In this document: positions 1,705-32,970 of the stretch, one piece after another
Layout: each line of letters starts with the position of its first letter
Numbering within the stretch: the first letter of the stretch is position 1
Source: Deltaproteobacteria bacterium
GTDB lineage: Bacteria; Desulfobacterota; DSM-4660; Desulfatiglandales; HGW-15
Assembly: GCA_019310485.1 (NCBI GenBank)
Contig: JAFDEF010000011.1
Location: 6,919-70,918 of the forward strand
Length of the DNA stretch: 64,000 nucleotides
Direction: 5' to 3'
Made by a program: the position numbers and the translations under genes
The notes under the pieces: model-generated
Told to the model about the DNA's origin: nothing
What the model saw: only the letters and a program-made list of their open reading frames with translations
Databases searched by the model: none

Positions 1705-2409
1705 TTAAGGTAAATCCACCCTGCGAACCATAACCTGACCATCCTCTTTTTTCGCCCTAAGAGCGAATTCAAAGATATCGCGCTGGAGGCAAACAATGGG
1801 ATCTTCTGGCGGAAAATACTGAATGTCAGGGGCCAGGAACTTCTGTGTTGTTTGGTGAAAAATGATTTCTCTAAGGGCTTTATTATGATCATAGCTTCCA
1901 TTGCCCAGAAGGTGCGATACATAGGTTGCGCACCATTCATCTTCCGGAGATCTTTCTTTAAGCTGTCTACCCATAGCCACAATACTGACCCTACGGGGCT
2001 GTCTGTCAATGATGTACCTGGCTGTTGGTGCTGCAAGAACAAAACTGCAGAGCAAAACCTCATCAGCAGCTTCAAGCGCTGTTACTGCTCCCTGGACTCC
2101 TGCAGAACTTCTTTGAACCACTGTTTTTCCTTCAAACAAAGAGGGATCTTGTTTTAGGATCTGGCTCGGTGAGTTGCCCAGATCAAAACCTTCGATAGGG
2201 ACTCCAGCGATTTCGCCGCTCAGAATAAGATCCTTATTTTCTTTCCTCAGGGCAAAGGCCTCTTCAGGTGTGGGAACAAGGATGGCTTTTTTTACTCCGA
2301 AAGAAAAGAACAGGGGGGTGCAGGTGAATGCACGGAAAACGTCAATTATCACAGCCGTGCCCTTAGCAGCTTTTGCACCTGACAAAAGACTATCGCGGGT
2401 TACCTCCAT
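1705..2409 (-). CDS. 2-phosphosulfolactate phosphatase (ComB) family protein
   Basis: AVIIDVFRAFT, GE..G..IEGFDLGNSPS and RSSAGV motifs. Start trimmed to MEVTRDS (2409). Confidence 0.85.
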   Translation of the reverse strand: MEVTRDSLLSGAKAAKGTAVIIDVFRAFTCTPLFFSFGVKKAILVPTPEEAFALRKENKDLILSGEIAGVPIEGFDLGNSPSQILKQDPSLFEGKTVVQRSSAGVQGAVTALEAADEVLLCSFVLAAPTARYIIDRQPRRVSIVAMGRQLKERSPEDEWCATYVSHLLGNGSYDHNKALREIIFHQTTQKFLAPDIQYFPPEDPIVCLQRDIFEFALRAKKEDGQVMVRRVDLP

Positions 2410-2651
2410 TTCTGTACCTTTCCATTTCAAGACTTTAAGAAATTTGATTGCAGTGCCTGCAACGAGCTCAGAGAAGATCCTCCGCTTCAACCCCCCGCCG
2501 AGTTTGATGCGGACTGGGTGGCGTTTTTGGTGCGTCAATACAGGCGTTCAAGTTAGCCTATATGTCATTATCTTGCAGGCATGTCAATCTTTTTGTGAAG
2601 CCAGGGGCCAGTGATTGTTGGTGTAAGCGTGCATGAGGCTCAATATTTTGC

Positions 2652-2715
2652 TTGACAAGTGCTGCCCGCATATTAGACCTTATTCGCAGATGTGCAGTTG
2701 CTGCTCATTTGTGCA
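2652..2715 (+). promoter_or_regulatory. Sigma70-like promoter with tandem operator, site 1
   Basis: TTGACA at 2652-2657; boxes TTCGCAGATGTGCA (2683-2696) and TGCTCATTTGTGCA (2702-2715), 5 bp apart. Confidence 0.7.
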
Positions 2716-2784
2716 CCTGCCTCGATGATGAAAGGAGCATAATCTGACTTTTATCAAAAGTTGTGCTTTTCAATGAGGGATTTT

Positions 2785-3129
2785 ATGGCAGAATGCTGTG
2801 TTCGGTGGGATGAAATGCCTTGGGAAATGGTGAGTGAAACAATCAAGCGCAAGGTCTGCTTGGGAAAGCAAATAATGATGGTTTTTTACTGTTTTGAACC
2901 GTTTGCTCAGTGGCCCGAGGAAAGACACATGGCTGAACAAGCCGGATACGTTATCGAGGGAAAAATCGTCTTGAAGCAGCCTGGTGATGGAAGAGAAACA
3001 GTTCTTGGTCCCGGAGACGGGTATCTAATCGAATCCAACAAAAAGCATTCATGGAGAGTTCTGGAGGAAAAGGTGGTCTTGCTCGATATTTTTTCTCCGC
3101 CAAGGATGGAATTGATCGGGCAATCATAG
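2785..3129 (+). CDS. Cupin domain protein
   Basis: PEERHMAEQAGYVIEG...LGPGDGYLIESNKKH...DIFSPPR. Start trimmed to the ATG after GAGGG. Confidence 0.85.
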   Translation: MAECCVRWDEMPWEMVSETIKRKVCLGKQIMMVFYCFEPFAQWPEERHMAEQAGYVIEGKIVLKQPGDGRETVLGPGDGYLIESNKKHSWRVLEEKVVLLDIFSPPRMELIGQS

Positions 3130-3192
3130 TTTCAAGGTTCATTTATGTCATAAGTCAGTCAAATCTCGGTTTTCGAGGCGGAGACAGGAGAA

Positions 3193-4692
3193 GTGAGAGG
3201 GGATCTGCAGCAGAACAAACAGGGTCGAAACGTATACGATGTAATTGTTGTCGGAGGTGGCATTGTAGGAAGTATGATAGCAAGGGAGCTATCTAAATAT
3301 AAGGGCCGCTTTGCGTTGGTTGAAAAAGAGCCGTCTACCGGTTTCGGAGTGTCAAAGGCGAATCCTTCAATGCTTCATTCAGCTTTCATGTTCCCTTCAG
3401 GGCCTTTGCGGCACAGGCTTGTATACGATGCCGCTTCCCGGTACAGGAAACTTGCCGGAGAACTGGACGTTGTCTTCAACGAAGTTGATGAGATCTTTGT
3501 GGCTCTTAACACCACTCAGCTTGAAAAGCTGGAAAAGGCACAAAAGTGGGCCGAAGAAAATAATTTGCCTGGCGGCCACAGGATGATCGGGGCAGGTGAA
3601 TTGCTGGAATTGGAACCCCATGTTACACCAAAGGCGCTGGGGGCCCTTCACGGCAAAGGGGTGGGCGGGATATACGCTCCTGAATGGACGTTTGCTTTAG
3701 TGGAAAACGCTGTCCAGAATGGTCTTGAGCTTTACCTTAGTACAGAGGTTAAGGATATCGGCAGAGAAAAGGACTTCCAATACGATGTGGTCACTTCTAA
3801 AGGGATCCTTGGGACTCGCTACCTGGTCAATGCGGCCGGCCTTTTCGTAGATGAAATAGCGCGAATGGTGGGGGACAATGACATAAAGTTGATACTGACC
3901 AAGGGCGTTATGGCTATCCTTGATAAATCTGTTTCACACCTGGTTCGAAATATGGTTTACGGATCCTACGGAAAGGATCACAGCCAATTGGTAACACCCA
4001 CCGCACATGGTAACATCCTGATCGGAATGGGGTATTTCACGTGCCCGGAGCATAAAGCCGACACCGGGGTCTCGGGAGAAAAGCTGAGTGAGGTTGTTGA
4101 AATGGCCAAGGAGCTCATACCGGCCGTTTCTGAAAAAGATGTTATTACATCATTTGCAGGCATTCGCTCTGAAAATACAAAGGCCCAGGTTATGGGTGAC
4201 TTCTACATTGGGGAGTCGGAACATGCACCAGGTGTGATCCACGCTGCAATAGGTTCTCCTGGACTTACGGCTGCCCCGGCGATTGCGGAGTATGTGATCG
4301 AGTTACTTTCTAGGGCTGGTATGGCCATGGAGGAGAAAAAGGATTTCAAGAAACACAGAACCGGCTGGCGTCGTTTCGAGGAGGCTTCTTTTTCGGAAAA
4401 AGAAAAAATGCTTGCATCTGATCCGAGATATGGGCACGTTGTTTGTCGGTGCGAGCAAGTGACCGAGGCGGAAATCCTGGAAGCTATCCGGCGAGGAGCA
4501 GATACTACTGATGCAGTGAAGCACCTGACAAGAGCCGGCATGGGGAGGTGCCAGGGAGGATTTTGCGGGACTGGCGTTTTGAACTATCTTGCAAGATACA
4601 TGGGAATTTCTCCAACCGATGTTACAAAAAAGGGGGTAGGGTCTTATCAGGTTTGCGGCTTCACTAAAGAAAAGAGGTCTCAGCATGGATAG
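3193..4692 (+). CDS. GlpA/LhgO-like FAD-dependent oxidoreductase with C-terminal BFD-like [2Fe-2S] domain
   Basis: GGGIVG FAD motif, NAAGL, SPGLTAAPAIA, CRCEQVT...RAGMGRCQGGFC; AGGAG RBS before GTG. Confidence 0.88.
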   Translation: MRGDLQQNKQGRNVYDVIVVGGGIVGSMIARELSKYKGRFALVEKEPSTGFGVSKANPSMLHSAFMFPSGPLRHRLVYDAASRYRKLAGELDVVFNEVDEIFVALNTTQLEKLEKAQKWAEENNLPGGHRMIGAGELLELEPHVTPKALGALHGKGVGGIYAPEWTFALVENAVQNGLELYLSTEVKDIGREKDFQYDVVTSKGILGTRYLVNAAGLFVDEIARMVGDNDIKLILTKGVMAILDKSVSHLVRNMVYGSYGKDHSQLVTPTAHGNILIGMGYFTCPEHKADTGVSGEKLSEVVEMAKELIPAVSEKDVITSFAGIRSENTKAQVMGDFYIGESEHAPGVIHAAIGSPGLTAAPAIAEYVIELLSRAGMAMEEKKDFKKHRTGWRRFEEASFSEKEKMLASDPRYGHVVCRCEQVTEAEILEAIRRGADTTDAVKHLTRAGMGRCQGGFCGTGVLNYLARYMGISPTDVTKKGVGSYQVCGFTKEKRSQHG

Positions 4693-4832
4693 AGTGGATG
4701 AAAGCTGTTATGGATCAAAATGCTTTTCAGTCTGCGGCAAGAATGGCCTTGCGTGGCACCGGGTGGAATGGGATACTCAGTGAGGGTCACCAGGCACAAA
4801 GTGGCGTGAAGTTTGGAAAGGAGAAGAGGAAA

Positions 4833-5903
4833 ATGAGTACAATACCTGAAACCATGAAGGCGGCAATACTAATGGGCCCAAACCAGCTTGAGGTGAAAGA
4901 GGTTCCCACTCCGAAGCCGGGGCCCATGGAAGTATTGTTGAAAGTGGCATCCTGCGCTTGTTGCAGTACTGACGTAGCACTCATGGCAAAGCCTTTCCCC
5001 GGGCAACCCCCTTACGGGAGTTTTATTCCTGGGCATGAATATGCAGGGGAGGTCGTTGCACTTGGAGACACGGTTGATGAGTTCAAAATAGGGCAAAGGG
5101 TTGCGGTAGAGGCGCACCTTGGGTGCATGCGCTGCCGTAATTGCCGGGTGGGAAACTATACGGCATGTCTAAATTACGGAACGCCCAAACATAGAGCAAA
5201 TGGAATGACTTCAAACGGCGGTTTTGCCCAGTATGTTGTCAATAACATAAACACTGTTCATGCAATACCTGATCACGTAGGGTTCAATGAGGCAGCTTTG
5301 ATAACGAACCTTGGTTGCGTTCTCTACGGTTTTCAAACTGTGGGAGGGTACGTTGCAGGGGATCATGTGGCAGTTATTGGCCCTGGACCCTTAGGTCTTA
5401 TTTCTTCGCAGGTTGCCAGGGCCTTTGGGGCTGAGATGGTATATCTGATAGGCACCCGAGCCTCAAGGCTTACAAAAGGGGCAGAGACAGGTGCTCACCG
5501 CGTGATAAACATACACGAGGAAGATCCGGTGAAGGTGGTGCTGGAGGGAACCAACGGAGTTGGCGCGGACCTCGTAATCGAGTCCTCCGGCGCTAGCGAT
5601 GCCCCCATGATGGCGATCAAGATGGTAAAGCCTATGGGTAAAATCCTTCTGCTCGGCTTCCCTCACGAACCTGTCCTGGTTGATCTGGAAGACGTGCTCA
5701 TGAAAAACAAATCGATTTATGCTGTGCGCGGTGAAGGGTGGGCAAATCTGAGAAGAGCCGTCTCGCTCATAGGGTCAGGGAAGATAGACCTAAAGCCGTA
5801 TGTTACCCACACATTTCCTCTTGATGAGATAAATACGGCTTTTAAGACTTTCATTGAGCGGATCGGTGGGGCAGTGAAGGTCGTGGTAAAGCCCAATGAA
5901 TAA
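4833..5903 (+). CDS. Zinc-dependent (MDR) alcohol dehydrogenase, paralogue A
   Basis: CSTD, GHE, structural-Zn CxxCxxCx7C, GPGPLG. Start trimmed to MSTIPETMK. Confidence 0.9.
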   Translation: MSTIPETMKAAILMGPNQLEVKEVPTPKPGPMEVLLKVASCACCSTDVALMAKPFPGQPPYGSFIPGHEYAGEVVALGDTVDEFKIGQRVAVEAHLGCMRCRNCRVGNYTACLNYGTPKHRANGMTSNGGFAQYVVNNINTVHAIPDHVGFNEAALITNLGCVLYGFQTVGGYVAGDHVAVIGPGPLGLISSQVARAFGAEMVYLIGTRASRLTKGAETGAHRVINIHEEDPVKVVLEGTNGVGADLVIESSGASDAPMMAIKMVKPMGKILLLGFPHEPVLVDLEDVLMKNKSIYAVRGEGWANLRRAVSLIGSGKIDLKPYVTHTFPLDEINTAFKTFIERIGGAVKVVVKPNE

Positions 5904-5975
5904 TGTGAGCTATGCCTTTGTTCTTGGGCTTTGCTAAGAGACGAGGTCTTGGTGAGCAGCATGGGAGATAGTATC

Positions 5976-7214
5976 ATGGAAAAGACGGTTTTACTGGTTG
6001 CAACGCTGGACACGAAGGAAGAAGAAGCCTTTTATTTGAAACAATGCATTACATCCCAAGGGATTGGTGTCATTGTTATGGATACCGGCATTCTTTCGTC
6101 CCCAAAAAGGAAACCTGATGTAACGCAGGGTGAGGTTGCCAAGCGCGGGGGGATTCCGCTCAAAGAAGCAGTGGCTACCGGGGACAAAGCTAAGTGCACT
6201 GCCAATATGAGCAGGGGTGCCGTGGAGATTGCTAAAGAGCTCTATGGTAAAGACCTTATCCATGGAGTTGTTGGAATAGGGGGGGCACAGGGAACCGAGA
6301 TTGCATGCGCTGCCATGCGGGCCCTGCCTGTAGGCGTGCCCAAGGTAATGGCATCTGCAGTTGCACAAGGAAGGCACATGTTTGGGTTCTATATGGGCAC
6401 AAAAGATCTTACCATTATGCATACGGTATCCGATATGCAAGGGCTCAACTTCTTGACAAGGCGTATTCTTGAAAATACAGCGGCCGCTATTTGTGGCATG
6501 ATCAGAAGCTTGAAAGAAGATACCATGAAGCCAAAGGGAATCCCTGTTGCCATGTCCATGCTGGGGACAACCACCCCTGGAGCGCTCAGAGCTAAAAGCA
6601 TCCTGGAAGGAGAAGGTTATGAGGTAGTGCCTTTTCATCAAAATGGAACTGGCGGCATTTGCATGGAAGACCTTATCCTGGAGGGGTATTTTGAAGGCGT
6701 GTTGGATTTGAACCTCCATGAGATTGGCGATGCCTTTGTTCATGGAATTCACGGCGCAATAAGGGAGGATAGGGCAGAAGCTGCTGGAGCAATGGGATTG
6801 CCCCAGGTCGTAGCGCCCGGGAGTACCAATTACACGGTCCAGGGAACTCCAGAAAGCCTCTCTGAGGAAATGAAAAAGCGTAAATGTTTTTATTACAACA
6901 AGGACCTCACCCTGGTACGATTGCTCCCCGAGGAGCTACGACAAGTGGGGAAGATCGTGGCCAGAAAACTCAACAAGGCAAAAGGCCCGGTGAAAGTATT
7001 TATTCCCCTGAAAGGATGGTCATTCCCAGACAGGGAGGGCTTACCCCACTGGGAGCCCGAAGGAAACCAGGCTTTTGTTGATGCCCTGAAAGAAAATCTT
7101 AATCCCTCTATTACCGTTATCGAACTTGATGCTCACATCAATGACCCTGATTTTATTGACCCGGTGGTCAAGGAGTTCATGTCCATGATGAAACAAAGGA
7201 AGCCGGCCGGTTAA
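5976..7214 (+). CDS. Tm-1-like ATP-binding domain protein (UPF0261)
   Basis: ATLDTKEEE, GIGGAQGT, LPVGVPKVM, SMLGTTT, FHQNGTGG, HINDPDF motifs. Confidence 0.9.
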   Translation: MEKTVLLVATLDTKEEEAFYLKQCITSQGIGVIVMDTGILSSPKRKPDVTQGEVAKRGGIPLKEAVATGDKAKCTANMSRGAVEIAKELYGKDLIHGVVGIGGAQGTEIACAAMRALPVGVPKVMASAVAQGRHMFGFYMGTKDLTIMHTVSDMQGLNFLTRRILENTAAAICGMIRSLKEDTMKPKGIPVAMSMLGTTTPGALRAKSILEGEGYEVVPFHQNGTGGICMEDLILEGYFEGVLDLNLHEIGDAFVHGIHGAIREDRAEAAGAMGLPQVVAPGSTNYTVQGTPESLSEEMKKRKCFYYNKDLTLVRLLPEELRQVGKIVARKLNKAKGPVKVFIPLKGWSFPDREGLPHWEPEGNQAFVDALKENLNPSITVIELDAHINDPDFIDPVVKEFMSMMKQRKPAG

Positions 7215-7279
7215 TTACGCTTCCAGAGGGGATCACGCAAACCGGTCCGGCCGGGCAGGGGCTTGTGATTTGTGGGCGG

Positions 7280-7298
7280 GTATGCCATCCAGGCATAC
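7280..7298 (-). other. Candidate bacterial SECIS element
   Basis: On the mRNA strand GUAUGCC-UGGAU-GGCAUAC: perfect 7-bp stem starting 20 nt after the UGA, with G at loop position 2. Confidence 0.6.
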
Positions 7299-7633
7299 TA
7301 TTTAGTTTGAGGGATCAGTCAGATAACTTCCATTTGCTCCGTGGCTTTAATGCAATGGTGAACGTCAGGCGGGCAATAGATAACATCCCCCGGCCTTAGC
7401 TTCTCTTCTTTATCTCCCATAATGCCTATGCCTTGGCCTTTTAAAACAAAGAATTCGTGTTCCCAGGGATGGCTATGCTCAGGACTTTTCCCCCCTGCTT
7501 CAATTGTGAGAACGCGCAAGTTGAAATTAGGAGCCCCATCCTTTTCCGTAATGATATGCCGGATTACGGTTTTTTCCGCACCGTCAAAGTCAACGACCTC
7601 TGGTTCCTGGTCCATATAATGAATGTGTTTCAT
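7298..7633 (-). CDS. TM1459-like cupin, candidate selenoprotein (in-frame TGA at 7319-7321)
   Basis: APNFNLR...HSHPWEHEFFVLKG...HH. Reading through the TGA gives EVI-U-LIPQTK-TAG, matching the family C-terminus EFL-C-LIP. A hairpin follows at 7280-7298. Confidence 0.75.
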
Positions 7634-7722
7634 GTTTTTCCTCCTTTAGTTTTCTTGGAAATGCCTTTCCGTTCACCCGGAGGCTGGAAATCAACCAGGG
7701 AAGAACCAGAGCACTTCTTTTC

Positions 7723-8742
7723 TTAGAGCGTCAAAGCGATTCTTCCTGGTGTTGTCTTGTTCCTCAAGGCATCCAAGGCATCGTTAGCTTGTGCAAATGG
7801 ATATGTTTTTGTGACAACAGGCTCTATTTCCCCTCTTTCGACGAGCTTTATGAGATCGAGAAGTTCTGCTTTTGTTACAAAGCGGGATCCTTTGATTTCA
7901 TACTCATGGTAGTGCATGGCCATGGTATCCAGGGGGAAAGGCCTTCCGGGAGCATACCCGACGATTATGAGCCTTCCTCCGCTTTTGAGTGAAGGAAACG
8001 ACCACTTGAGCGTTTCAGGCGCACCCACGATCTCGATTACAGCATCAACACCTGCTCCCTGTGTCAGATCATGAAGGGCTTGCTCGGCTTTTTCAGGCTT
8101 AAGGGTCTCATCAGCGCCATATTTCTTGGCAAGGTCGAGGGCATTTTCTTCTATATCAACAACAATAACCCTTGCCCCGCTTAGTTTTGCAATCTGCACA
8201 GCATGGATGCCAAGGCCGCCTGCACCCACAATGAGTACATCCTGGCCCGGTTTTACGCGGGCAAGCGTTGTTATTGCGTGATAAGAAGTGCCGATAGCGT
8301 CTGCCAGAATCGCCATCTTGTGAAGATCCAGACTTTTTTGAAACGGGCAGAAATTGTACGCTGGAATCACAAGGTATTCTCTAAATCCTCCTTCAAGCTC
8401 AAACCCCACTCTTTTCAGATTATCGCACAAGTTTTCTCTACCTGTAAGGCACCTCATACATTTGTGGCAGGTTACGTAAGAGTAAACCACCCCCACATCA
8501 CCGGTGTGAATTTCTGTGACATTTTCCCCAATAGCTGATATCTCCCCCACCACCTCGTGACCGAGAACGTGAGGTAGATTCACTATTGGAGGAGGGATAT
8601 CCCCCCTGATAATCTTAAGATCAGTCTGGCATATACCGCAGGCTTTTACCTTGACAAGAACTTCATCAGGCCCCGGAGAGGGAATTTCTCTATCAACCAT
8701 CTGGAGCGCTTCGTTGTAAGAATTGAGAACAAGGGTTTTCAT
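7723..8742 (-). CDS. Zinc-dependent alcohol dehydrogenase (AdhP-like MDR)
   Basis: CGICQTD, GHE, CxxCxxCx7C, GAGGLG. Confidence 0.9.
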   Translation of the reverse strand: MKTLVLNSYNEALQMVDREIPSPGPDEVLVKVKACGICQTDLKIIRGDIPPPIVNLPHVLGHEVVGEISAIGENVTEIHTGDVGVVYSYVTCHKCMRCLTGRENLCDNLKRVGFELEGGFREYLVIPAYNFCPFQKSLDLHKMAILADAIGTSYHAITTLARVKPGQDVLIVGAGGLGIHAVQIAKLSGARVIVVDIEENALDLAKKYGADETLKPEKAEQALHDLTQGAGVDAVIEIVGAPETLKWSFPSLKSGGRLIIVGYAPGRPFPLDTMAMHYHEYEIKGSRFVTKAELLDLIKLVERGEIEPVVTKTYPFAQANDALDALRNKTTPGRIALTL

Positions 8743-8806
8743 GATTTCTGCCTTTCATCTGAGAGTGAAAAGAACAGTGAGAAAGCCTCTTTGAAAGAAA
8801 CCATTC

Positions 8807-9688
8807 TTACCCCAGTTCAGCTTTCTCAATTGCATCCTTGACCAGTTGTTTCTTGGCATCGCTCAAAGGCAACAACGGCAGGCGGGGAGGACCTCCATAG
8901 TAACCTGCAAAATCCATGGCCTGCTTTACACCTGCAACCCCGCCGGCACCGGAGACCGACTGGTTGAGGCGAAAAAGTTTGGAATGAAGCTCCCTTGCGC
9001 CTCTCACGTTCCCTTGCATGAATTTTTCGTAGAGCTTACAGCAGGGTTCCGGGAATGCATTGGCAAGGGAAACAACGCCTCCTGAAGCACCCAGGCTTAG
9101 GCCAATAAAAAGCGTGTTGATCGTGCCTGCAAGAACATCAAAATCAGGGCTGCAAACCTCCAGGTAGTGGGCGATACCGGCGGGAGAGGTATCTTTCATG
9201 CCACCTATGTTTGGGTGCCTGGAAACAACCTCAATCACCCTGGGACTCAATGTGACCCCGGTAAATCCGGGAGCATTGTAAACAAAGACTGGAACATTCA
9301 CAGCATCTGCGACGTCCGTATAATAACCAATAAGGGCGTCATCGGTGAGCGACTTCTTGAAATAACTGGGCGTGAGCAAGGAAACGATATCTGCACCAAT
9401 TTCCTGGGCCTTTTTCGAAAAAGCTATGGTTTGCCTGGTTGATTCATAACCCGTGCCCGCCATCACGATCTGGCTGTCAGCCTTTTCCCGAATGACTGTT
9501 TCAAGTACGCTCAGTTTTTCTTCATCAGTGAGGCTCTTGTTTTCACCGTTGCTTCCAAGAACCAGAAACCCACTCAGTGGGGTTTCCCTATATTTTCGAA
9601 CGTTTTCTTTCAAGTGTTCAAGAGAGACTTCCTCGTTTACAAAAGGAGTCGTGATCGGTGCGAAAATTCCGGATACTTTGCCACCCAT
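8807..9688 (-). CDS. DapA/NAL-family class I aldolase, HOGA-like
   Basis: APITTPF, GSNGE (as in 4-hydroxy-2-oxoglutarate aldolase), YNAP, Schiff-base GMKDT, PRLPL. Confidence 0.85.
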   Translation of the reverse strand: MGGKVSGIFAPITTPFVNEEVSLEHLKENVRKYRETPLSGFLVLGSNGENKSLTDEEKLSVLETVIREKADSQIVMAGTGYESTRQTIAFSKKAQEIGADIVSLLTPSYFKKSLTDDALIGYYTDVADAVNVPVFVYNAPGFTGVTLSPRVIEVVSRHPNIGGMKDTSPAGIAHYLEVCSPDFDVLAGTINTLFIGLSLGASGGVVSLANAFPEPCCKLYEKFMQGNVRGARELHSKLFRLNQSVSGAGGVAGVKQAMDFAGYYGGPPRLPLLPLSDAKKQLVKDAIEKAELG

Positions 9689-9783
9689 AGTTATACCTCC
9701 AAGAAGCATAAGAAAAAAAGCAAAAGTGTGTACCGTCTATAAAAAAGCTACTGCAAAAAGAGAAATGCAGGTGCTAAAGGCAT

Positions 9784-10980
9784 CTATCCGCAAAAGGCTG
9801 CCACTCGCTTTGCCACAAAATCCACCATCTGCTGCGTAGCTTTGCTAAACTGACCAGCAGTGGCAAGCAAAGCCGGGTGAGAGTTAAACTCTTCAGCGCT
9901 GTAGCCGTCCTCAGCATAACCCTTTTCAAAGTAGGGAATTTTCATCAGCTTGTCCATTACTTCTTGTGGAACAGGCTCATAAATTTGGTTGCTAAACTCT
10001 AAATGCCTGCCTTTGAAAAAAAGCCCTTCCAGATAGGGGGGAGGACATGTGAACACTGCATTGGCACCTGCAGTTTTTTCTACGTGCCAGGATCGGACAA
10101 CCCCGTCTACGGTCGGGCTCATCCTCATCGAGCAAAGAAGCATTTTTCCGGGATACTCGTTGTTTTCATCAACCAGCCGGCACGCCTTCTTGAAGATCGC
10201 TATTTCAGCCCAGCGAACATCGGCTTCGCTCAGCTCTATGTTTCTTTCCTGTGCTTCTTTTTGCAAATCTCCCAAAGTACCGTAGCGGGCGCTCATGGCG
10301 GTAATCACGGAACGCCACTTGCTTAGGTCAACACCTTTGGCCTTTGCCTCCTTAATCCCTTCAGCCACTGCGTTCATGCAGGCTACAAATTGAGGAATTA
10401 TGAAAGCCAGGGTGTTGTTGGTGGGTATGGCCCTTGCAGTCAGTTGTTTGATTACCTCGTAGCCTTCGGCTGTACCCGGGACTTTAATCATGACATTGGG
10501 TGAGAGGGAATGGAGTTCTATGCCCTGGCTCACCATTTTTTCAACGTCATGGCGTATCCTGGGATCTACCTGCCCTGAAATAAAACCATACTTATAATTC
10601 GTTGCTTCAAAAATTGGCAAATACGCCTCTGCTCCTCGCTTCACTATCTCTTTATAAGTATCCCAGAACACGACTTCAGAATCAGTGCAGCGGTCTTTAC
10701 CTATCCGGTCATCAATCCATTTGGACCAATAGTCCGGGTTGTCTTTGATCGCATTGTAGGATAGCGGCGGATTCGTGGTCACGCCTCGGAAGATATTGTC
10801 CTCCGGGTTGTTGTTCTCACTGTACAAACGGTCCAGCCAGGCTGTCATTTCCTCTTTGTCGGAAGCCTGCTCAATCATCTTCTTCCGCCAGTTGTCATAA
10901 ATAAGTGGGGATGAATCCCACCATATCTCAGCTTCAGGATTAACCTCCCATAATCTTTCAATAACACTTTTTGACGCCAT
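9784..10980 (-). CDS. Transaldolase-family protein (atypical)
   Basis: WWDS, GVTTNPPL, SGQVDP, Schiff-base MIKVPGT, NNTL. Confidence 0.85.
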   Translation of the reverse strand: MASKSVIERLWEVNPEAEIWWDSSPLIYDNWRKKMIEQASDKEEMTAWLDRLYSENNNPEDNIFRGVTTNPPLSYNAIKDNPDYWSKWIDDRIGKDRCTDSEVVFWDTYKEIVKRGAEAYLPIFEATNYKYGFISGQVDPRIRHDVEKMVSQGIELHSLSPNVMIKVPGTAEGYEVIKQLTARAIPTNNTLAFIIPQFVACMNAVAEGIKEAKAKGVDLSKWRSVITAMSARYGTLGDLQKEAQERNIELSEADVRWAEIAIFKKACRLVDENNEYPGKMLLCSMRMSPTVDGVVRSWHVEKTAGANAVFTCPPPYLEGLFFKGRHLEFSNQIYEPVPQEVMDKLMKIPYFEKGYAEDGYSAEEFNSHPALLATAGQFSKATQQMVDFVAKRVAAFCG

Positions 10981-11001
10981 TTTTCCCCTCCTGCAACAAA
11001 A

Positions 11002-11364
11002 TTAATCACGAATGTCATCAGAGGCCAGAAGATCAACACCGGTTCCCAGAAAATTAGGAATTATCACATCACCGATCTTGATCGGTGGTTGAACCTTCAC
11101 TTTTGATAGCTCATCCATGGCCCTGAATATTTCCCTTTTAGGTATCCCTGTTCTGGTTCGAACAGGCAGCCTTTTGCTTCGACTCTGTTCAACAACGACT
11201 GTAGAAGTCAAAATTCGTTTTGGCTCGAGGAATTCTTGCTTGAGGTATTCTTTGCCCCTTTTGCAGACTTCGCCTTTTATTATTACATTGCCATCCTCCA
11301 TCCAGACTCTGGCATGGCATCCTTTAGGGCAGGTAATACATATGAGATCTTTGGCTCCCTTCAC
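11002..11364 (-). CDS. DUF1667 small CxxC metal-binding subunit
   Basis: ICITCPKGC...CKRG...PKRILTSTV...LPVRT. Confidence 0.85.
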   Translation of the reverse strand: MKGAKDLICITCPKGCHARVWMEDGNVIIKGEVCKRGKEYLKQEFLEPKRILTSTVVVEQSRSKRLPVRTRTGIPKREIFRAMDELSKVKVQPPIKIGDVIIPNFLGTGVDLLASDDIRD

Positions 11365-11367
11365 AGC

Positions 11368-12621
11368 CTACCTCTCCTCGCAACGGATTTGAAGTTTGCT
11401 CACAGATGGGCCCATTTGCGAGAAAATTTTCTTTGGAATTTTCAAGCGAATCATTTCGCTAGGCCGGGCATAGGAAAATTTTTTCTCAAAGTTTTCCCCC
11501 ACTCTGAGCACCATTTTCCCCATGGGTTTCTTAACTCTTAAATAAAAGATAGTTTCACGGTCCCCGGATATTTTTTGGGGAACAACTTGGCCTACACCTT
11601 CATCTGCCTCGACTTCCATGATTCGTTCACGTCCGAGCGTTTTTCCCTTGATGCGTTCATAAGCTCCAGTGGCGGCAAGTTCTCCTTCATTGGACACATT
11701 GTCAACAAGATCATTTACATGAAGGACGTTTCCGCAGGAAAAAATTCCTTCCACACTTGTTTCCAGACAGTCATTAACATATGGTCCGCCTGTTTTAGGA
11801 TCAATAAGCACGCCTGCCTGCTTGGAAAGTTCATTTTCAGGGATCAGGCCTACTGAAAGCAGCAAGGTGTCACATTCCACATATTGCTCCGTTCTCTTTA
11901 TCGGATTCCAGTCAGTATCGACTTTAACGAGCGTGACCCCTTCCACACGCTTATCTCCGTGAATTTCGGCAACCGTGTGACTCAGTAGAAGGGGTATCTC
12001 ATAGTCGTTCAAGCACTGGACCACGTTCCTGATGAGGCCGCTGGAATAGGGCAAAATCTCGGCGACCGCAACGACCTCAGCCCCCTCCAAGGTAAGGCGC
12101 CTGGCCATTATAAGGCCAATGTCCCCTGAACCAAGTATTACAACTTTTTCCCCAGGCATGTATCCTTCGATGTTTATAAGCCTCTGGGCATGCCCGGCTG
12201 TAAAAATCCCCGCCGGTCTCGTACCGGGTATTCCAAGGGCGCCCCTGGGCCTTTCCCTGCATCCCATCGCAAGGATGATTGATTTACACTCGTATTTGCG
12301 CAAGCCGCTATGTTCACTGACGGAAGTTAGTGTCCTGTCTTTTTCGATTTCCAGAACAGTGGTGTTAAGCTCGATATCAATGCCGGCGGATTCGGCCATT
12401 TTAATATATCGGTTCGCATACTCGGGACCTGTCAACTCTTCTTTGAATTTTTCAAGGCCAAACCCGTTGTGGATGCATTGCCTCAGAATCCCACCGGGCA
12501 GTTCATCCCGCTCAAAGACAACCAGATTCTTAACACCCCTCCTGTCAGCCTCTACGGCAGCAGCGAGACCGGCTGGGCCGGAACCGATAATAGCAATATC
12601 CAGCTTAGATCTTTTCAACAT
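11368..12621 (-). CDS. NAD(P)/FAD-dependent oxidoreductase (thioredoxin-reductase-like partner subunit)
   Basis: GSGPAG, GGILRQCIHNGFG, ELTGPEY, GCRER, GSGDIGLIMARR, GNVLHVNDLVD. Start trimmed to MLKRSK, overlapping the upstream stop. Confidence 0.88.
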   Translation of the reverse strand: MLKRSKLDIAIIGSGPAGLAAAVEADRRGVKNLVVFERDELPGGILRQCIHNGFGLEKFKEELTGPEYANRYIKMAESAGIDIELNTTVLEIEKDRTLTSVSEHSGLRKYECKSIILAMGCRERPRGALGIPGTRPAGIFTAGHAQRLINIEGYMPGEKVVILGSGDIGLIMARRLTLEGAEVVAVAEILPYSSGLIRNVVQCLNDYEIPLLLSHTVAEIHGDKRVEGVTLVKVDTDWNPIKRTEQYVECDTLLLSVGLIPENELSKQAGVLIDPKTGGPYVNDCLETSVEGIFSCGNVLHVNDLVDNVSNEGELAATGAYERIKGKTLGRERIMEVEADEGVGQVVPQKISGDRETIFYLRVKKPMGKMVLRVGENFEKKFSYARPSEMIRLKIPKKIFSQMGPSVSKLQIRCEER

Positions 12622-14114
12622 TCCCCAGCTCCACTTTCTCCACCCTGCTTTGTGTAGCCTACAATATGGTGAGAGCCGGCCCCTTTCTTTGTTACCTTCG
12701 TGGCAGGAATCCCGAGAGTGTTTGCCAGGTATTTTAGAACACTGCTTCCGCAAAAGCTTCCTTGGCAGCGCCCCATACCCGCTCTTGTGAGGTGTTTGAC
12801 CCCGTCCATCGTGTCTACCCCTCTTTTTATTGCATTTATTACTTCAGCCTCTGTCACCTGTTCGCAGCGGCAGACAATATGTCCGTACTTCGGGTTTGAT
12901 GCAATCATTTTTTCCTTCTTGCTCAGGGGGGCGCTTTCAAACCTCGGAAAACTTTCTTTTCTGGTGTGGAAAACTTTCTTTTCCTCGGCTTTCAGTCCTT
13001 GTTCTACCAGCAGCCTGATTACCATATCGGCAATTCCGGGCGCTGCAGTGAGTCCGGGTGCACCGGCAAGCACATGTATAGCACGGGGTGCGTGCTCTGA
13101 AGGAGCAATATAGAAATCCCCGTCCGATGCCTTGTTATTCGTGCAGAGAATGCCTGAAAAACTTGTAATCATGTCTTTTTCCCTGAGCGCTGGAACGAGC
13201 TCCTTTCCAAGCTTAAATGTCTCCTCAATGTTTTCCCTGCTCACACTTGTATCCTTTTTGTTCCTTGGCTTGACGTAATGAACCCCAAGGATCAAGTTCC
13301 CATGAGCAGTCGGTGCAATGTCCTGGCTATGCTTTTCGCTAAAGGTTCCAAATAGCATATGCCGCACAAGAGATGATACCGACTTATCGAAAATGAGCAT
13401 CGTGCCTTTGCGCAATTCCAGGTGAATATCAGCATCCCCGAGCAATGCGGCTATTTCATCAGAGTAAAGGCCTGCAGCGTTGATAACATATCTTGCTCTT
13501 ATTTGCCCTCTGGTGGTCGTCACCTTATAGTAATGATCATCCTCTTTGTCTATGCCGGTTACAGCAGCTCCCAGATACAGGCTCACACCGTTTTGTACAG
13601 CATTTTCCGTAAGTGCAAATGTCCACTCAGGTGTGTAAAGTACACCCGGTTCTTTTGCATAAAGCCCTGCAATTGCCTTTTTCGTCACATAAGGTTCGAG
13701 TTGCCGTATTTTTTCAGGCCCAATTATCTCATAACCCCGGGCACCATTTGACTCTCCCCTCTTCTTTGCCTCCCAGAGGTTTTCTATGTGCTCTTGTTTC
13801 AGGGCCAGCCATATTTCTCCAACTTCCCTGTAGTGCAGGTCAAGTTCGCGGGCAAGCTTTTTAAAACGCTGCGGCGCATTCGCACTCAACTTGCCTTTAA
13901 GGGAGCCGATAGGGCAAAAGTCAGGCAGATGGATCTGAGACAGACTTGCCTTTGATACTCCGAATCCGGGGAAAGCCTCTTTTTCAATGAGAGCAAACTT
14001 TCCCTTGAGCTTTGAAAGCTCACGGGCGATCATGGCTCCAATGATACCGGCCCCTATTATAACCACATCACATTCACCCAGAAATGCAGGGCTTACAGAT
14101 TGGGCCTTTGCCAA
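12615..14114 (-). CDS. GlpA/LhgO-like FAD-dependent oxidoreductase with BFD-like [2Fe-2S] domain, second paralogue
   Basis: GAGIIG, NAAGL, APGLTAAP, CRCEQVT...RAGMGRCQGSFC. Confidence 0.88.
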   Translation of the reverse strand: MAKAQSVSPAFLGECDVVIIGAGIIGAMIARELSKLKGKFALIEKEAFPGFGVSKASLSQIHLPDFCPIGSLKGKLSANAPQRFKKLARELDLHYREVGEIWLALKQEHIENLWEAKKRGESNGARGYEIIGPEKIRQLEPYVTKKAIAGLYAKEPGVLYTPEWTFALTENAVQNGVSLYLGAAVTGIDKEDDHYYKVTTTRGQIRARYVINAAGLYSDEIAALLGDADIHLELRKGTMLIFDKSVSSLVRHMLFGTFSEKHSQDIAPTAHGNLILGVHYVKPRNKKDTSVSRENIEETFKLGKELVPALREKDMITSFSGILCTNNKASDGDFYIAPSEHAPRAIHVLAGAPGLTAAPGIADMVIRLLVEQGLKAEEKKVFHTRKESFPRFESAPLSKKEKMIASNPKYGHIVCRCEQVTEAEVINAIKRGVDTMDGVKHLTRAGMGRCQGSFCGSSVLKYLANTLGIPATKVTKKGAGSHHIVGYTKQGGESGAGEC

Positions 14115-14116
14115 TG

Positions 14117-14482
14117 TTACCCCTCGCCCCGGGCATACTTTATTGCAGGCGCGAACACGTTATAAATAACAAGTTCTTCTTCAACGTTTCGTATCGCATG
14201 CTTTGTATTGGGGGGAACCTGGACCACCGTACCCGGTTCTACAGGAAACTCACCAACCCCATCAATGAACATCGTGGCTTTGCCCTCGAGAACATAGACG
14301 AGATCCGGCTGATCCCTGTGCACGTGGTCGGGTAATGTCACTCCTTTTTCAAGTCTGATCTGCATAACTGCAATGGGCGAGTCATCTTTCTCGCGGGTGT
14401 ATATCCACCTTATGGCACCCCTGTCCGTCATGAAATGCGGCTCCCACTCTACCTCAGATATCTTCTTAAATGGTGCAGTCAT
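14117..14482 (-). CDS. Cupin domain protein
   Basis: PDHVHRDQPDLVYVLEG...PGTVVQVPPNTKH; GGAG RBS. Confidence 0.88.
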   Translation of the reverse strand: MTAPFKKISEVEWEPHFMTDRGAIRWIYTREKDDSPIAVMQIRLEKGVTLPDHVHRDQPDLVYVLEGKATMFIDGVGEFPVEPGTVVQVPPNTKHAIRNVEEELVIYNVFAPAIKYARGEG

Positions 14483-14605
14483 TGTGTTCTCCTTTCAATT
14501 TAACTTTTAGGTTTCAAGGAAAAATCAGCCACACAAGTAATATTTTTTTCAAGTTGGCGGGTTTTCTTGCGGTACAAGTGTCATACTCTGTAAGTGACAC
14601 AAATT

Positions 14606-14669
14606 TGCTCATTTGAGCACTTAATGCACATCTGTGTATCTTGATAAGCACAAAAGGAAGTTTTGTCAA
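14606..14669 (-). promoter_or_regulatory. Sigma70-like promoter with tandem operator, site 2
   Basis: TGCTCATTTGAGCA (14606-14619) and TGCACATCTGTGTA (14625-14638); minus-strand TTGACA at 14664-14669. Confidence 0.72.
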
Positions 14670-14680
14670 GACAAAAACGG

Positions 14681-14707
14681 TGAAACCCGCCAAAGGAGCG
14701 GGTTTCA
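14681..14707 (-). terminator. Intrinsic terminator-like hairpin after the ABC permease
   Basis: TGAAACCCGC-7nt-GCGGGTTTCA, followed on the minus strand by CCGTTTTT. Confidence 0.6.
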
Positions 14708-14782
14708 TTATAGATGTCGAGATGATCTCAGAGGCAATTTCAAAGGGGCAACTTGAAAAACGCAGCCTTCGAAACTCCTCAA

Positions 14783-15661
14783 TTACTCCTCAAAGCCAAA
14801 GGCCCTTCCCCTGACGCCATAAAGCCCTGTGGGTTTAAATAGAATCACAATAAACATGACCATGAACGGCCCGACAAAAGCAAGTGGAGCGTAAATTGTG
14901 CCTCCTACAGAGATAACCTGTCCAAGGATAAGCGCAGAGACAAGAGTACCCTTGATACTTCCCAATCCGCCCAGTATCACTGTGATAAAAGCGAACAGGA
15001 GCATATCAAACCCCATGTAAGGGGTGACTCCAACCAAGGGTGAATTAAGGGCGCCCCCGAACCCGGCCAGTCCGCTTGCTATGACGAAAGTTACAGTGAA
15101 AATGCGGCCGAGGTTTATTCCCAATCCCCTTACCTGGTCAGGGTTTTCAATTCCTGCGCGGATCGCTTTGCCTGCAATTGTTTTGTTAAGCATAAGATTA
15201 ATAAAAACGTACACCAGCATGCCGATCACAAAAACCATCAATCGGTACAAGGGTATCTTGGCACCCAGCATGTGGACTATGGTATGGAAAGGCATGCCGA
15301 CCGGTTTACTTGCAAGTCCGAATACATACTGTACTATTCCAATGCCGATTAGAAATACGCTGAAAGTCACCACCATGGTGAACATGAGTTCTTTTCCGTA
15401 AACCTTTCGGAGTAATTGGGTTTCCACTATAAACCCTGCAACTGCGGCTGCGGCTGTCCCGCAAATTAACCCGAGCACGAAACTTCCGGTTGCTGAGACC
15501 AAGGCAAAGGTGAGGTATGCTCCAAAGGTGTAATAAACCATCTGTTCCATATTAACAATTCGCATAAGGCCAAAGCCGATGGATATGCCGATAGAAACCA
15601 GGAACAAAATACCACTGATACCCAATCCAAAAACTACAGCCGAAATGTAGAGTTCAAGCAT
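14783..15661 (-). CDS. Branched-chain amino acid (HAAT) ABC transporter permease, LivH-like
   Basis: Hydrophobic; GLMRIVN, GKAIRA, VILGGLGSIKG. Confidence 0.88.
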   Translation of the reverse strand: MLELYISAVVFGLGISGILFLVSIGISIGFGLMRIVNMEQMVYYTFGAYLTFALVSATGSFVLGLICGTAAAAVAGFIVETQLLRKVYGKELMFTMVVTFSVFLIGIGIVQYVFGLASKPVGMPFHTIVHMLGAKIPLYRLMVFVIGMLVYVFINLMLNKTIAGKAIRAGIENPDQVRGLGINLGRIFTVTFVIASGLAGFGGALNSPLVGVTPYMGFDMLLFAFITVILGGLGSIKGTLVSALILGQVISVGGTIYAPLAFVGPFMVMFIVILFKPTGLYGVRGRAFGFEE

Positions 15662-15712
15662 TATTCGATTCCCCTCAAATTATTGTCTTGTTTGTGATTC
15701 AGTCCTTGTACT

Positions 15713-16687
15713 TTATGTTGCACTTTGTGCTGAAGCCTTCCCTCTGGATCTAATCTTTGCCCCTATTGTTTGAATGGTTCCCCAGACTCCTCCGCTGAAC
15801 TTGAAGCAGACTATGATGGTCAACACGCCGACTGCAAGCTCCCATCGGGAGACAAAAGTACTGACCAAGTCCTTTAACCCGAGAAAGGCAAAGGTCCCGA
15901 AGAAAGGACCATACACGCTCCCAGCGCCCCCAAGCAGGGTTGCCACGAGGACTTCTGCAGCCCGTGCCGGTTCAGTTATGCTTGGATTCACAAATCCGTA
16001 ATTGATGGCATACATGGAGCCGGCTAAAGCTGCCAGTATGCACATCAGGGTATATCCGGTCCAACGGATTTTGAAAGTATCATATCCAAGAAATTTCATC
16101 TTGTTTTCATTCACTTTAATAGCCCTGAAGGACGCACCCATGGCTGACCTGTCAAGCCATGTATACCATATCATTACTACAAACAGGACGATCATGGCGA
16201 ACCAGAAAAATTGGTCAGGTTTCCTTAAATCCAGCAAAGGAGTGGCATGCATTCTAGACCGGTACCAGAGGCCGTCATCTCCTCTTGTAATGGGGTAAAG
16301 GATCTTTTCCACCAAAAAGAGGCCCATCGCGCATGTAGCGGCATTGATTAGGGCAAAGTAATCTCCGCGGAGTCTGATAAATGCGGGCCCAAGGATCAAG
16401 CCTGCTATAAGCCCCATCAGAAGTGCAAGCGCGATGGCGACCAAAATATTGTTGCCTATGTGGGCAAGATAGATGGCTGACGCATAAGCCCCCACGCCCA
16501 GGTAGAAGGGCTGTCCAAAGGAGACCATACCCATGTAACCGTAAAGGATGTCATTTGCTATGATGTAGATCGAAAAAGTGGTGATCTCCACAAGGAAGGT
16601 CATCTTGTTAGGGAAAAAATACCTTGCAATGACAATGAGAACCACGAGTGTCAAGGGCCCACGTAGATATCTTGAAAGCTTATCCAT
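15713..16687 (-). CDS. HAAT ABC transporter permease, LivM-like
   Basis: GYMGMVSFGQ, RLRGDYFAL, LLGGAGSVYGP. Confidence 0.88.
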   Translation of the reverse strand: MDKLSRYLRGPLTLVVLIVIARYFFPNKMTFLVEITTFSIYIIANDILYGYMGMVSFGQPFYLGVGAYASAIYLAHIGNNILVAIALALLMGLIAGLILGPAFIRLRGDYFALINAATCAMGLFLVEKILYPITRGDDGLWYRSRMHATPLLDLRKPDQFFWFAMIVLFVVMIWYTWLDRSAMGASFRAIKVNENKMKFLGYDTFKIRWTGYTLMCILAALAGSMYAINYGFVNPSITEPARAAEVLVATLLGGAGSVYGPFFGTFAFLGLKDLVSTFVSRWELAVGVLTIIVCFKFSGGVWGTIQTIGAKIRSRGKASAQSAT

Positions 16688-16735
16688 GTTTTTTTAAGTC
16701 CTCCGAGAACTCTGTTTTAGATCTGTCTCCTGTAT

Positions 16736-17437
16736 TTACAGGTATTTCTCAAATGCCAGGTCTTGGATTTCCTTTTTGTCCGCAACTTCTGCGACGATTT
16801 TCCCCTCCTTCATGGCATATACACGGTGCGCGACTTCAGCAGTGAGCGGCAGGTTTTGCTCAATAATCACAAGTGTACTTTGCTCGCTTATTTTCTTAAA
16901 AGCGCCTTTCAGGTCTTCGATTACGTGAGGTGCAAGACCCTCAGTCGGCTCGTCCATCAAGACAAGTTCGGGCTTTCCAAGAAGAGATTGCGCCATAAGT
17001 AGCATCTGTCGCTCGCCACCGCTGAGGTTGCCCCCCTTTCTATCCATGAGGGTCTTCAGCTTGGGAAAATGCTCTAACACCCTGTCCCAGTCGTAGTCCT
17101 TGGTAGCATAGCTGCCCAGCTCCAGGTTTTCCCTCACCGTTAGATCTGCAAACACGTGCTTGTCTTGCTGGATGTATTTAAGACCCTTGAGAGCCACCTC
17201 GTAAGAAGGCAGATGGCCTATATCCTCCCCTTTGAAAAGGATAGTGCCACTGTCTTGCTTTAGAAAACCTGCGACAGTCCGGAAAAGAGTGGTTTTACCC
17301 GCACCGTTTCGTCCCACCACAACCACTACCTCCCCTGTTTGTATCTCAAGAGAAACATCAAAAAGGACATGGAGAGTTTTATAGGACACGCTGAGTTCTT
17401 TTACCTCTAGAATTCTTTCATTGCTTTTTTCAATCAT
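16736..17437 (-). CDS. HAAT ABC transporter ATP-binding protein, LivF-like
   Basis: GRNGAGKTT, LSGGERQML, DEPTEGLAP. Start trimmed to MIEKSN. Confidence 0.9.
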   Translation of the reverse strand: MIEKSNERILEVKELSVSYKTLHVLFDVSLEIQTGEVVVVVGRNGAGKTTLFRTVAGFLKQDSGTILFKGEDIGHLPSYEVALKGLKYIQQDKHVFADLTVRENLELGSYATKDYDWDRVLEHFPKLKTLMDRKGGNLSGGERQMLLMAQSLLGKPELVLMDEPTEGLAPHVIEDLKGAFKKISEQSTLVIIEQNLPLTAEVAHRVYAMKEGKIVAEVADKKEIQDLAFEKYL

Positions 17438-17456
17438 GACATGTTTCCCGTTTTCG

Positions 17457-18218
17457 CTAGGTTTCAAGCTTCCAGTAGCAGCGCCTGACTTCCGGGTCAT
17501 TGAGCGTTGACTCACAGTCCCCGCAGCAAATGATCCTGCCTTCATGCATTACAGCAAGTCTGTCCACAAACTCCTCAAGTTTAGAAACTTTGTGTTCAAT
17601 AAGAAGGATTGTTTTATCGTGAATATACTTTCTGAAAACATCAATCACTTCTTCAATCTCCTGGTCTCCCAGGCCTGAAAAAGGCTCGTCGAAGATTACA
17701 ACTGCTGGATCAGACACAAAAGTCATGGCAAGCTCAAGCCTTTTCTTGCTCCCCAGAGGCAAGTTTCCAACAATCTCATCTTTGAGATGGTCAAGTTCAA
17801 GCATTTCCATGGTTTCTTGAACCCTGGAAGCAATGCCTGGTTGCCTCAGTGAGCTGAAAAACATCTTGAGCGTGAAAGGCTTGTTTTCTTTTTTTCTAAA
17901 ATATGAAAGGGAAAGGTTTTCGTACACTGTCAGGTTGTCAAATACATGAACCAGTTGAAAAGTCCTCAAAATCCCCATCTTGACCCTGTTTGCAGCGCTC
18001 AAATGAGTGATGTCTTTTCCGTCGTGAAAGACATGTCCCTCTTCGGGATTATAAAAGCCGCTAAGGATGTTTATGAAAGTCGTTTTGCCGGCCCCATTCG
18101 GCCCGATGATTCCCAGGGTTTCTTTTTCCTGCAAGTCAAAGTCAACCCTGTCAACGGCGACAAAATCCCCGAACCGCTTTGTGACCCCTTGGGTCATCAG
18201 TACTGGCTTTTTATCCAT
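17457..18218 (-). CDS. HAAT ABC transporter ATP-binding protein, LivG-like
   Basis: GPNGAGKTT, RTFQ, DEPFSGL, IEH. Confidence 0.9.
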   Translation of the reverse strand: MDKKPVLMTQGVTKRFGDFVAVDRVDFDLQEKETLGIIGPNGAGKTTFINILSGFYNPEEGHVFHDGKDITHLSAANRVKMGILRTFQLVHVFDNLTVYENLSLSYFRKKENKPFTLKMFFSSLRQPGIASRVQETMEMLELDHLKDEIVGNLPLGSKKRLELAMTFVSDPAVVIFDEPFSGLGDQEIEEVIDVFRKYIHDKTILLIEHKVSKLEEFVDRLAVMHEGRIICCGDCESTLNDPEVRRCYWKLET

Positions 18219-18272
18219 GTTAAACCCCTGATAAATGGGCTAAGATACATTGTTCTCCATAATTTTTCAAAA

Positions 18273-18313
18273 TGCCATTTCAGGGGCGTCAATCAGGGAC
18301 CCCCGAAATGGCA
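18273..18313. other. Intergenic stem-loop after the binding-protein gene
   Basis: TGCCATTTCAGGGG...CCCCGAAATGGCA inverted repeat. Confidence 0.5.
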
Positions 18314-18331
18314 CTCATAACGGGTTAGTAA

Positions 18332-32529: not shown

Positions 32530-32970
32530 TTACAGGTATTCCTTCTGCCAGGTTTGGGTGGCTTTCTTAATCCTTTTTTGGAATAGCTCCTTTTCCACAA
32601 TTCCTGGAGGAGAAACCACCACGAGGAGCATAAGCATCTCGTCTCCGGTATTGACAATCCTGTGCTCCACTTCGGGCGGGACAAAGATAGCGCTCCCGGG
32701 CCCCACCTCCCTTTGTTCGTCACCCACGGTTTCAATGCCCTTGCCCCGGAGGACGTAGAGGAGCTCCTCAACAGGGCTGGGGTGCTTATGGAGTGGGATG
32801 CCCGCACCCGGGGGAAAGCTTGTTTCCCATACACTCATTTGTTTCACGCCGTTCGTGCTCTGGTCGAAAAGAACTCTCAGCGTCTCATTAAGCCCTTCGT
32901 GCTCGTAAATTGGCCCTTCCTCTCCAAACCATGACGGCTTCTTTATATACTTGAAAGTTTTTTCTCCCAT
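32530..32970 (-). CDS. Cupin domain protein
   Basis: PLHKHPSPVEELLYVLRG...GPGSAIFVPPEVEH. Start trimmed to MGEKTF. Confidence 0.88.
   Translation of the reverse strand: MGEKTFKYIKKPSWFGEEGPIYEHEGLNETLRVLFDQSTNGVKQMSVWETSFPPGAGIPLHKHPSPVEELLYVLRGKGIETVGDEQREVGPGSAIFVPPEVEHRIVNTGDEMLMLLVVVSPPGIVEKELFQKRIKKATQTWQKEYL

Follow-up and report, generated by a model that had tools for sequence, protein, structure and literature searches.

Does the in-frame TGA near the 3' end of a small cupin gene end the protein, or is it decoded as selenocysteine (Sec)? The question is raised by a stretch of 64,000 nucleotides (nt) from Deltaproteobacteria bacterium (assembly GCA_019310485.1, contig JAFDEF010000011.1, positions 6,919 to 70,918), referred to here as the window. 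On its minus strand, translation with genetic code table 11 gives an open reading frame (ORF) of 104 residues that runs from the ATG at 7633-7631 to the TGA at 7321-7319. Beyond this codon the frame continues as CTG ATC CCT CAA ACT AAA and reaches a real stop, TAG, at 7300-7298, so that the extended product has 111 residues and the C-terminal end ...MEVI-U-LIPQTK. An initial annotation of this DNA had already seen the ORF halt at the TGA within the last β-strand and the frame read on as EVI-U-LIPQTK before its stop. It had proposed a 111-residue cupin carrying both a metal site and Sec, which gene callers would cut short. Both observations are reproduced here, by the minus-strand reading and by an AlphaFold2 model in which the last strand spans residues 101–108, and the proposal itself is strongly supported by the Sec/Cys column, the covarying hairpin and the Sec machinery described below. 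We put at roughly 0.92 the probability that the gene at 7633..7298 (minus strand) encodes, as predicted from sequence comparison, a 111-residue Sec-containing four-histidine cupin of the TM1459 type, in which Sec replaces a conserved active-site Cys.

A TGA codon in the column of a conserved cysteine

Homologues were collected at two levels, as 98 protein clusters from a collection of 5.8 billion proteins and as 80 listed loci with one genome per species, roughly 500 further relatives lying outside this locus set. The window and the 80 loci together make up the 81 sequences of the codon count; 17 of the loci failed the motif filters and were read separately (one TGA, in L028, and 16 Cys), the other 64 sequences being covered by the main reading. 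At the aligned column TGA is present in 22 sequences and a cysteine codon in 59 (TGT in 28, TGC in 31), with no TAA or TAG at all. The TGA is not a one-off, as 21 genomes besides the window carry it at this position. In the 21 Sec genes that could be aligned the frame stays open for five or six codons past the TGA and closes with a mixture of stops (TAA 11, TAG 7, TGA 3), and the exclusive use of TGA at the Sec column is therefore not a stop-codon habit. Within the L/M/V-I-P stretch that begins the short extension of the same genes, the Ile and Pro codons are invariant at their first and second positions and variable only at the third (ATC in 8, ATT in 12 and ATA in 1 for Ile, and all four CCN codons for Pro), which indicates that the codons past the TGA are translated.

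The protein databases give the complementary picture. At least 70 of the 98 clusters end exactly one residue before the TGA column, and seven further 104-residue entries of this set were missed by the motif filter. Another 17 clusters, with a C-[LMIV]-[IV]-[PT] tail such as CLIP, continue to a stop of their own. Most database homologues are stored as 104-residue proteins, in line with the truncation by gene callers that had been anticipated, and the named ones appear as 'cupin domain-containing protein' (NCBI) or 'quercetin dioxygenase-like cupin family protein' (JGI).

Downstream of the UGA the transcript can form a perfect hairpin of seven base pairs (bp), GUAUGCC-UGGAU-GGCAUAC, at 7298..7280 of the minus strand, the first base of which is the G of the TAG. 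It is separated from the UGA by 20 nt (7318..7299), with 27 nt between the UGA and the loop, it carries a G as the second loop base, and when folded alone it has an energy of -10.8 kcal/mol. The 7-bp stem, the 20-nt distance and the loop G described in the initial annotation are thus exact. A comparable hairpin (stem of 6–9 bp, loop of 3–5 nt containing GG, start 14–23 nt past the codon) follows 2145 of the 136144 TGA triplets of the genome. At this chance level of 1.6% the hairpin of one genome is weak evidence, and the weight comes from its conservation in homologues. All 22 TGA genes have a hairpin behind the UGA, with a stem of 5–9 bp that starts 16–20 nt past the UGA; a cruder hairpin scan chose a different stem in two of them. 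The covariation alignment comprises 21 of the 22 genes, the remaining one, L028, having been folded separately, with UGGAU as its loop. In the aligned genes GG occupies loop positions 2–3 in every case, the complete loop UGGAU is found in 14, and the UGA-to-loop spacing ranges from 23 to 28 nt. Standard pairs fill 99.2% of the 133 stem cells, and all seven stem pairs have changed on both sides (38 cells). None of 500 column shuffles matched the covariation score, and sliding the 3' partner by 1–3 columns lowers the pairing to 19–57%.

These dimensions were compared with the model of the bacterial Sec insertion sequence (SECIS; bacterial form, bSECIS) of Zhang and Gladyshev, as summarised in PMC13188914 (upper stem of 4–16 bp, spacing of 16–37 nt, threshold of -7.5 kcal/mol). 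The geometry lies within the limits in 21 of 21 aligned genes, and the trimmed hairpin reaches the energy threshold in 18. Among 43 Cys genes scanned there were only short chance stems, with the single exception of L024 (1883-1942), where a 6-bp stem with the loop UGGAU begins 21 nt past a TGC. The SECIS appears to have been retained here after a recent change from Sec to Cys. The contigs of L024 and of a Sec form, L018, belong to one Desulfatiglandales record set of metagenome-assembled genomes (MAGs). Taken over the whole set, the hairpin tracks the TGA and not the gene arrangement.

The genome (3.64 Mb in 103 contigs, 94% complete) contains the machinery for Sec, whose genes selA, selB, selC and selD were all found. 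The tRNA-SeC (selC) was detected by aragorn, and selD (372 bits), selB (388 bits) and selA (624 bits) all score above curated cut-offs. The selD gene (locus L001, G000:C2:12271-13197) has one in-frame TGA, placed after GSG, and 16 nt past this UGA a hairpin with a 6-bp stem and the loop GGA, of a design like that of the cupin hairpin; this selD is itself a predicted selenoprotein gene. selA was also present in all five other TGA-form genomes tested. As to the DNA itself, the region 7150-7750 is letter-identical in contigs of four other sequencing runs, and DNA near-identical to window positions 6900-8100 (at least half of the sampled words) occurs in contigs of 13 runs, which are hydrothermal vent or sediment metagenomes from different studies.

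Decoding would follow the usual bacterial mechanism. When the UGA (7321-7319) occupies the A site of the ribosome, the hairpin, 20 nt to the 3' side, would be placed at the mRNA entrance, where its anatomy suggests that it would recruit SelB-GTP-Sec-tRNA(Sec) and so allow Sec to be inserted. The six codons LIPQTK would then be read up to the TAG. When selenium or SelB is lacking, a 104-residue product missing half of the last strand would be expected. The features of the gene are collected in Table 1.

Table 1. Features of the cupin gene, in window coordinates
Feature	Position	Strand	Basis or remark
Predicted cupin selenoprotein coding sequence	7298..7633	-	111 codons plus TAG; translated with TGA = U
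Shine-Dalgarno-like AGGAGG	7640..7645	-	direct sequence reading; 6 nt 5' of ATG 7633-7631
In-frame TGA, residue 105, column of TM1459 Cys106	7319..7321	-	codon survey and TM1459 alignment
Six post-TGA codons LIPQTK, completing the last β-strand	7301..7318	-	codon variation; strand 101–108 in the model
HSHPWEH motif with metal-binding H53, H55 and H59	7456..7476	-	aligned to TM1459 ligands
Fourth metal-binding histidine, H93	codon 7357-7355	-	aligned to TM1459 H92
Bacterial SECIS hairpin, 7-bp stem, loop UGGAU	7280..7298	-	folding, covariation, bSECIS model

Termination, readthrough or error

Instead, translation could truly end at the TGA and yield a 104-residue cupin. The hairpin would then serve the convergent gene as well, as a transcription terminator or as an element of RNA stability, and the LIPQTK codons would be a vestige. 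A number of observations speak for this explanation or otherwise weigh against Sec. On the plus strand, the hairpin at 7279-7299 followed by ATTTAGTTTG was flagged by a simple scan as terminator-like for the convergent UPF0261 gene, and a T-run defined by a lax rule is seen on the opposite strand at 9 of 21 loci, the window included; the element may have a second role as a terminator and so serve both convergent genes. The database gene calls all stop at the TGA. C-terminally shortened variants of TM1459 remain stable and keep activity in a non-native assay (PMC5031596), and by analogy a 104-residue product might still function. The hairpin alone stays above -7.5 kcal/mol in L012 (-6.2), L017 (-7.4) and L020 (-5.8). 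selA is found in four of the five Cys-form bacterial genomes tested as well, so that the machinery is necessary and not discriminating. The gene neighbourhood gives no hint of function.

Several properties of the locus set stand against termination, however. The stop at this column is TGA in 22 of 22 genes, whereas the next stops are mixed, and the Ile and Pro codons behind it vary in the manner of translated codons. Read in the direction of the cupin, only 1 of 21 hairpins is followed by a T-run (the tail in the window reads CCGCCCACAA), and the combination that defines a rho-independent terminator, a GC-rich stem with a U-run on the transcribed strand, is absent from the cupin sense strand. 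In the raw ORF maps of the 20 other loci the downstream ORF is co-directional in 12, convergent in 3, and unclear or cut in 5. Finally, the conserved GG of the loop, its constant spacing from the UGA and the association with TGA are not features of a terminator, and the Cys-form genes scanned are without the hairpin, apart from the relic in L024. We regard a genuine stop at this codon as very improbable.

Alternatively, the UGA could be read through without Sec-tRNA, for example by near-cognate insertion of Trp or Cys or because the structure behind it makes the stop more leaky. The coding constraint on the codons behind the UGA is compatible with this, as it shows translation past the UGA without identifying the residue that is inserted. 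The identity of the residue is addressed by the homologues without TGA, which have Cys in 59 of 59 cases and form a classical Sec/Cys pair with the TGA genes. In addition, the hairpin agrees with the published bSECIS constraints and resembles the one behind the UGA of the genome's own selD, and the Sec machinery is complete here and represented by selA in the five other TGA genomes. In three of the Sec genes the frame is closed six codons further on by another TGA, which means that UGA is not generally leaky or reassigned. Readthrough by a non-Sec tRNA is accordingly given very little chance. That the TGA, a bare stop inside a conserved strand, is a nonsense mutation, the mark of a pseudogene or an assembly error peculiar to this record has practically no probability, being refuted by the 21 other TGA genomes, by the many protein clusters truncated at the same residue and by the identical contigs of the four other runs.

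Fold, metal site and the probable position of the selenol

The protein belongs to the Pfam family Cupin_2 (PF07883; E 2.4e-16, 59.6 bits with respect to a gathering cut-off of 27.2), and the AlphaFold2 model of the 111-residue product, with a predicted local distance difference test score (pLDDT) of 96, places the Sec inside the last strand. In the June 2026 release of NCBIfam no model reached its cut-off, the best being (R)-mandelonitrile lyase NF049940 (36.3 with respect to 140 bits). A tblastn search of the genome for paralogues returned one copy of the Sec-cupin family and five distant cupins with 26–37% identity. Three distant Cupin_2-like genes are found on the minus strand of the window (~14165-14482, 32620-32946 and 46888-47184), with 26–33% identity to the Sec cupin. 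In L023 and L027 the Sec cupin is immediately followed by a second cupin, a homologue of the window cupin at 14117-14482.

The structural reference for the family is Thermotoga maritima TM1459, a structural-genomics protein that is widely used as an artificial-metalloenzyme scaffold and for which we know of no native function. The close resemblance to this protein claimed in the initial annotation was recovered both in sequence (phmmer, E 9e-17) and in structure (Foldseek, TM-score 0.91, root-mean-square deviation of 1.3–1.5 Å, 36–37% identity). In the phmmer alignment the HSHPWEHE and CLIP motifs match residue for residue, the Sec column falls on Cys106 of TM1459, and H53, H55, H59 and H93 align with H52, H54, H58 and H92. 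The four histidines, together with R40 and W57, are invariant among 25 aligned homologues. Both proteins are single-domain cupins of about 110 residues in which the four histidines, Arg39/Arg40 and Trp56/Trp57 are conserved (TM1459: PDB 1vj2, 5wsd and many variants). They differ in that residue 106 of TM1459 is a Cys and its gene has no SECIS, whereas the cupin described here has a Sec encoded by UGA. The comparison supplies a site, not a reaction.

According to PMC5031596, the Mn ligands of TM1459 are H52, H54, H58 and H92, and Cys106 lines the substrate cavity with its SH group placed at 3.14 Å from His58 and 2.91 Å from Arg39. This agrees with the earlier statement that the cysteine of CLIP lies beside the four-histidine metal site. 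Substitutions of C106, or truncation at 107, raise a non-native alkene-cleavage activity according to the same paper, from which it follows that the residue is not structural, nor needed for that reaction. By extension from the TM1459 structure, the selenol would be located in the substrate cavity, adjoining the metal ligand His59 and the invariant Arg40. Most likely it would work together with the metal centre of a small oxidoreductase, in a redox-active or nucleophilic capacity. In a more specific arrangement, the selenol of Sec105 would coordinate the four-histidine metal as a fifth ligand, directly or in a redox-switchable manner, forming a mononuclear His4-Se(Cys) centre with Mn, Fe or Ni; we consider this arrangement unlikely. 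Cys94 was also considered, as a resolving cysteine, and rejected, since the residue after His93 is Cys in 14 of the 21 Sec genes and Ser, Thr or Arg in the rest.

Gene context, distribution and significance

The cupin had been placed as the last gene of a proposed operator-controlled catabolic operon. The position stood, as the cupin is the last gene of a co-directional string (a Liv-type ABC transporter, two DAO/BFD FAD proteins, a Pyr_redox_2 protein, a transaldolase-like protein, a DHDPS-family protein and a zinc alcohol dehydrogenase, Zn-ADH) and converges with the UPF0261 gene that ends at 7214. The operon as a context for the cupin did not: the catabolic neighbours of the window have no counterparts beside the other 20 Sec genes. 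Those have among their neighbours a transketolase with an ARMT1-like phosphatase, a phosphoenolpyruvate-utilising enzyme, a CCG/4Fe-4S protein, an aldehyde:ferredoxin oxidoreductase, a histidine kinase or Tex. The Cys forms show synteny within single lineages only (an M42 peptidase and an ABC-2 transporter in Cloacimonadota, an FAD protein in Bathyarchaeia). The neighbourhood was rejected as a clue to the substrate, as the context is conserved neither among the Sec loci nor across the Cys lineages, and the function is therefore not tied to the operon of the window.

The surroundings of the cupin gene form a catabolic-looking cluster (7723-19573 on the minus strand, and 1705-7214). Its transport genes encode a Peripla_BP_6 binding protein, an ABC ATPase and permeases. 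Its enzymes include two DAO plus BFD-[2Fe-2S] FAD oxidoreductases with a Pyr_redox_2 protein, a layout which we take to be that of opine or amino-acid oxidases, and a transaldolase-like protein; a DHDPS-family aldolase, two Zn-ADHs, the UPF0261 protein and a protein of the 2-phosphosulfolactate-phosphatase family are also present.

A maximum-likelihood tree, calculated for 64 of the 81 sequences, places all of its 21 Sec forms in a single clade (support 100/99), which also contains three Cys forms (L022, L024 and L049), and its labelled members are all MAGs of Thermodesulfobacteriota or 'Deltaproteobacteria'. Elsewhere in the tree, the Cys forms belong to Bathyarchaeia, Thermoproteota, Nitrososphaerota, Cloacimonadota, Brocadiaceae and other groups. 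The tree requires two state changes, and Sec may have originated once. In this scenario the Sec form would have arisen in one clade of the sulfate-reducer type (Thermodesulfobacteriota) from Cys-containing ancestors, which would have been widespread among archaea and other anaerobes.

The TM1459-like cupin looks like an uncatalogued selenoprotein family, with an earlier listing under another name being possible. None of the 119 families and subfamilies of prokaryotic selenoproteins tabulated in a 2026 review (PMC13188914, Table 1) corresponds to it. Nor is the word 'cupin' used in the main texts, supplementary family tables aside, of this review, of the deep-Sep paper or of the BSepDB paper (PMC13326102), as far as these texts were accessible. 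A full-text literature search pairing cupin with selenoprotein or selenocysteine gave nothing relevant.

With respect to known bSECIS genes, such as selD of this genome, the cupin gene shares a UGA aligned with the Cys of homologues and a hairpin within the limits for stem and spacing. It differs in that its Sec lies only seven codons from the C-terminus, and for this reason the hairpin is found at or behind the true stop and not inside the coding sequence. UXX-star and KCU-star, listed in Table 1 of PMC13188914, likewise have Sec a few residues before the stop, a SECIS mostly 3' of the coding sequence, and genes that are routinely truncated by gene callers. These, however, are small thiol-oxidoreductase-like or unknown proteins that take their names from motifs at the very end, whereas the Sec of the cupin is predicted inside the last β-strand of a metal-binding barrel. 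Formate dehydrogenase (Mo/W-Se) and [NiFeSe] hydrogenase also have Sec at or beside a catalytic metal, as the review describes. They have unrelated folds and cofactors, and their Sec is a direct metal ligand; in TM1459, on the data of PMC5031596, the distance of 3.14 Å for the homologous sulfur is to a ligand histidine, not to the metal.

The families listed in the review are mostly thioredoxin-like proteins with redox motifs and a few Mo/W or NiFe enzymes, and a Sec beside a His-coordinated mononuclear metal in a cupin barrel would be a different chemical setting. The family is not rare, with 70 or more of the 98 nearest clusters cut off at the Sec codon, and gene callers and selenoprotein pipelines should lengthen these genes by 6–7 codons. 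Sec/Cys pairs usually mark catalytic redox cysteines, and the finding therefore points to Cys106 as the functional residue of the TM1459 family. If the selenol were the fifth ligand of the metal, the centre would be one without a described counterpart among selenoenzymes, and the Sec/Cys pair would mark an unassigned catalytic residue of the whole TM1459 family, in archaea as well as in anaerobic bacteria.

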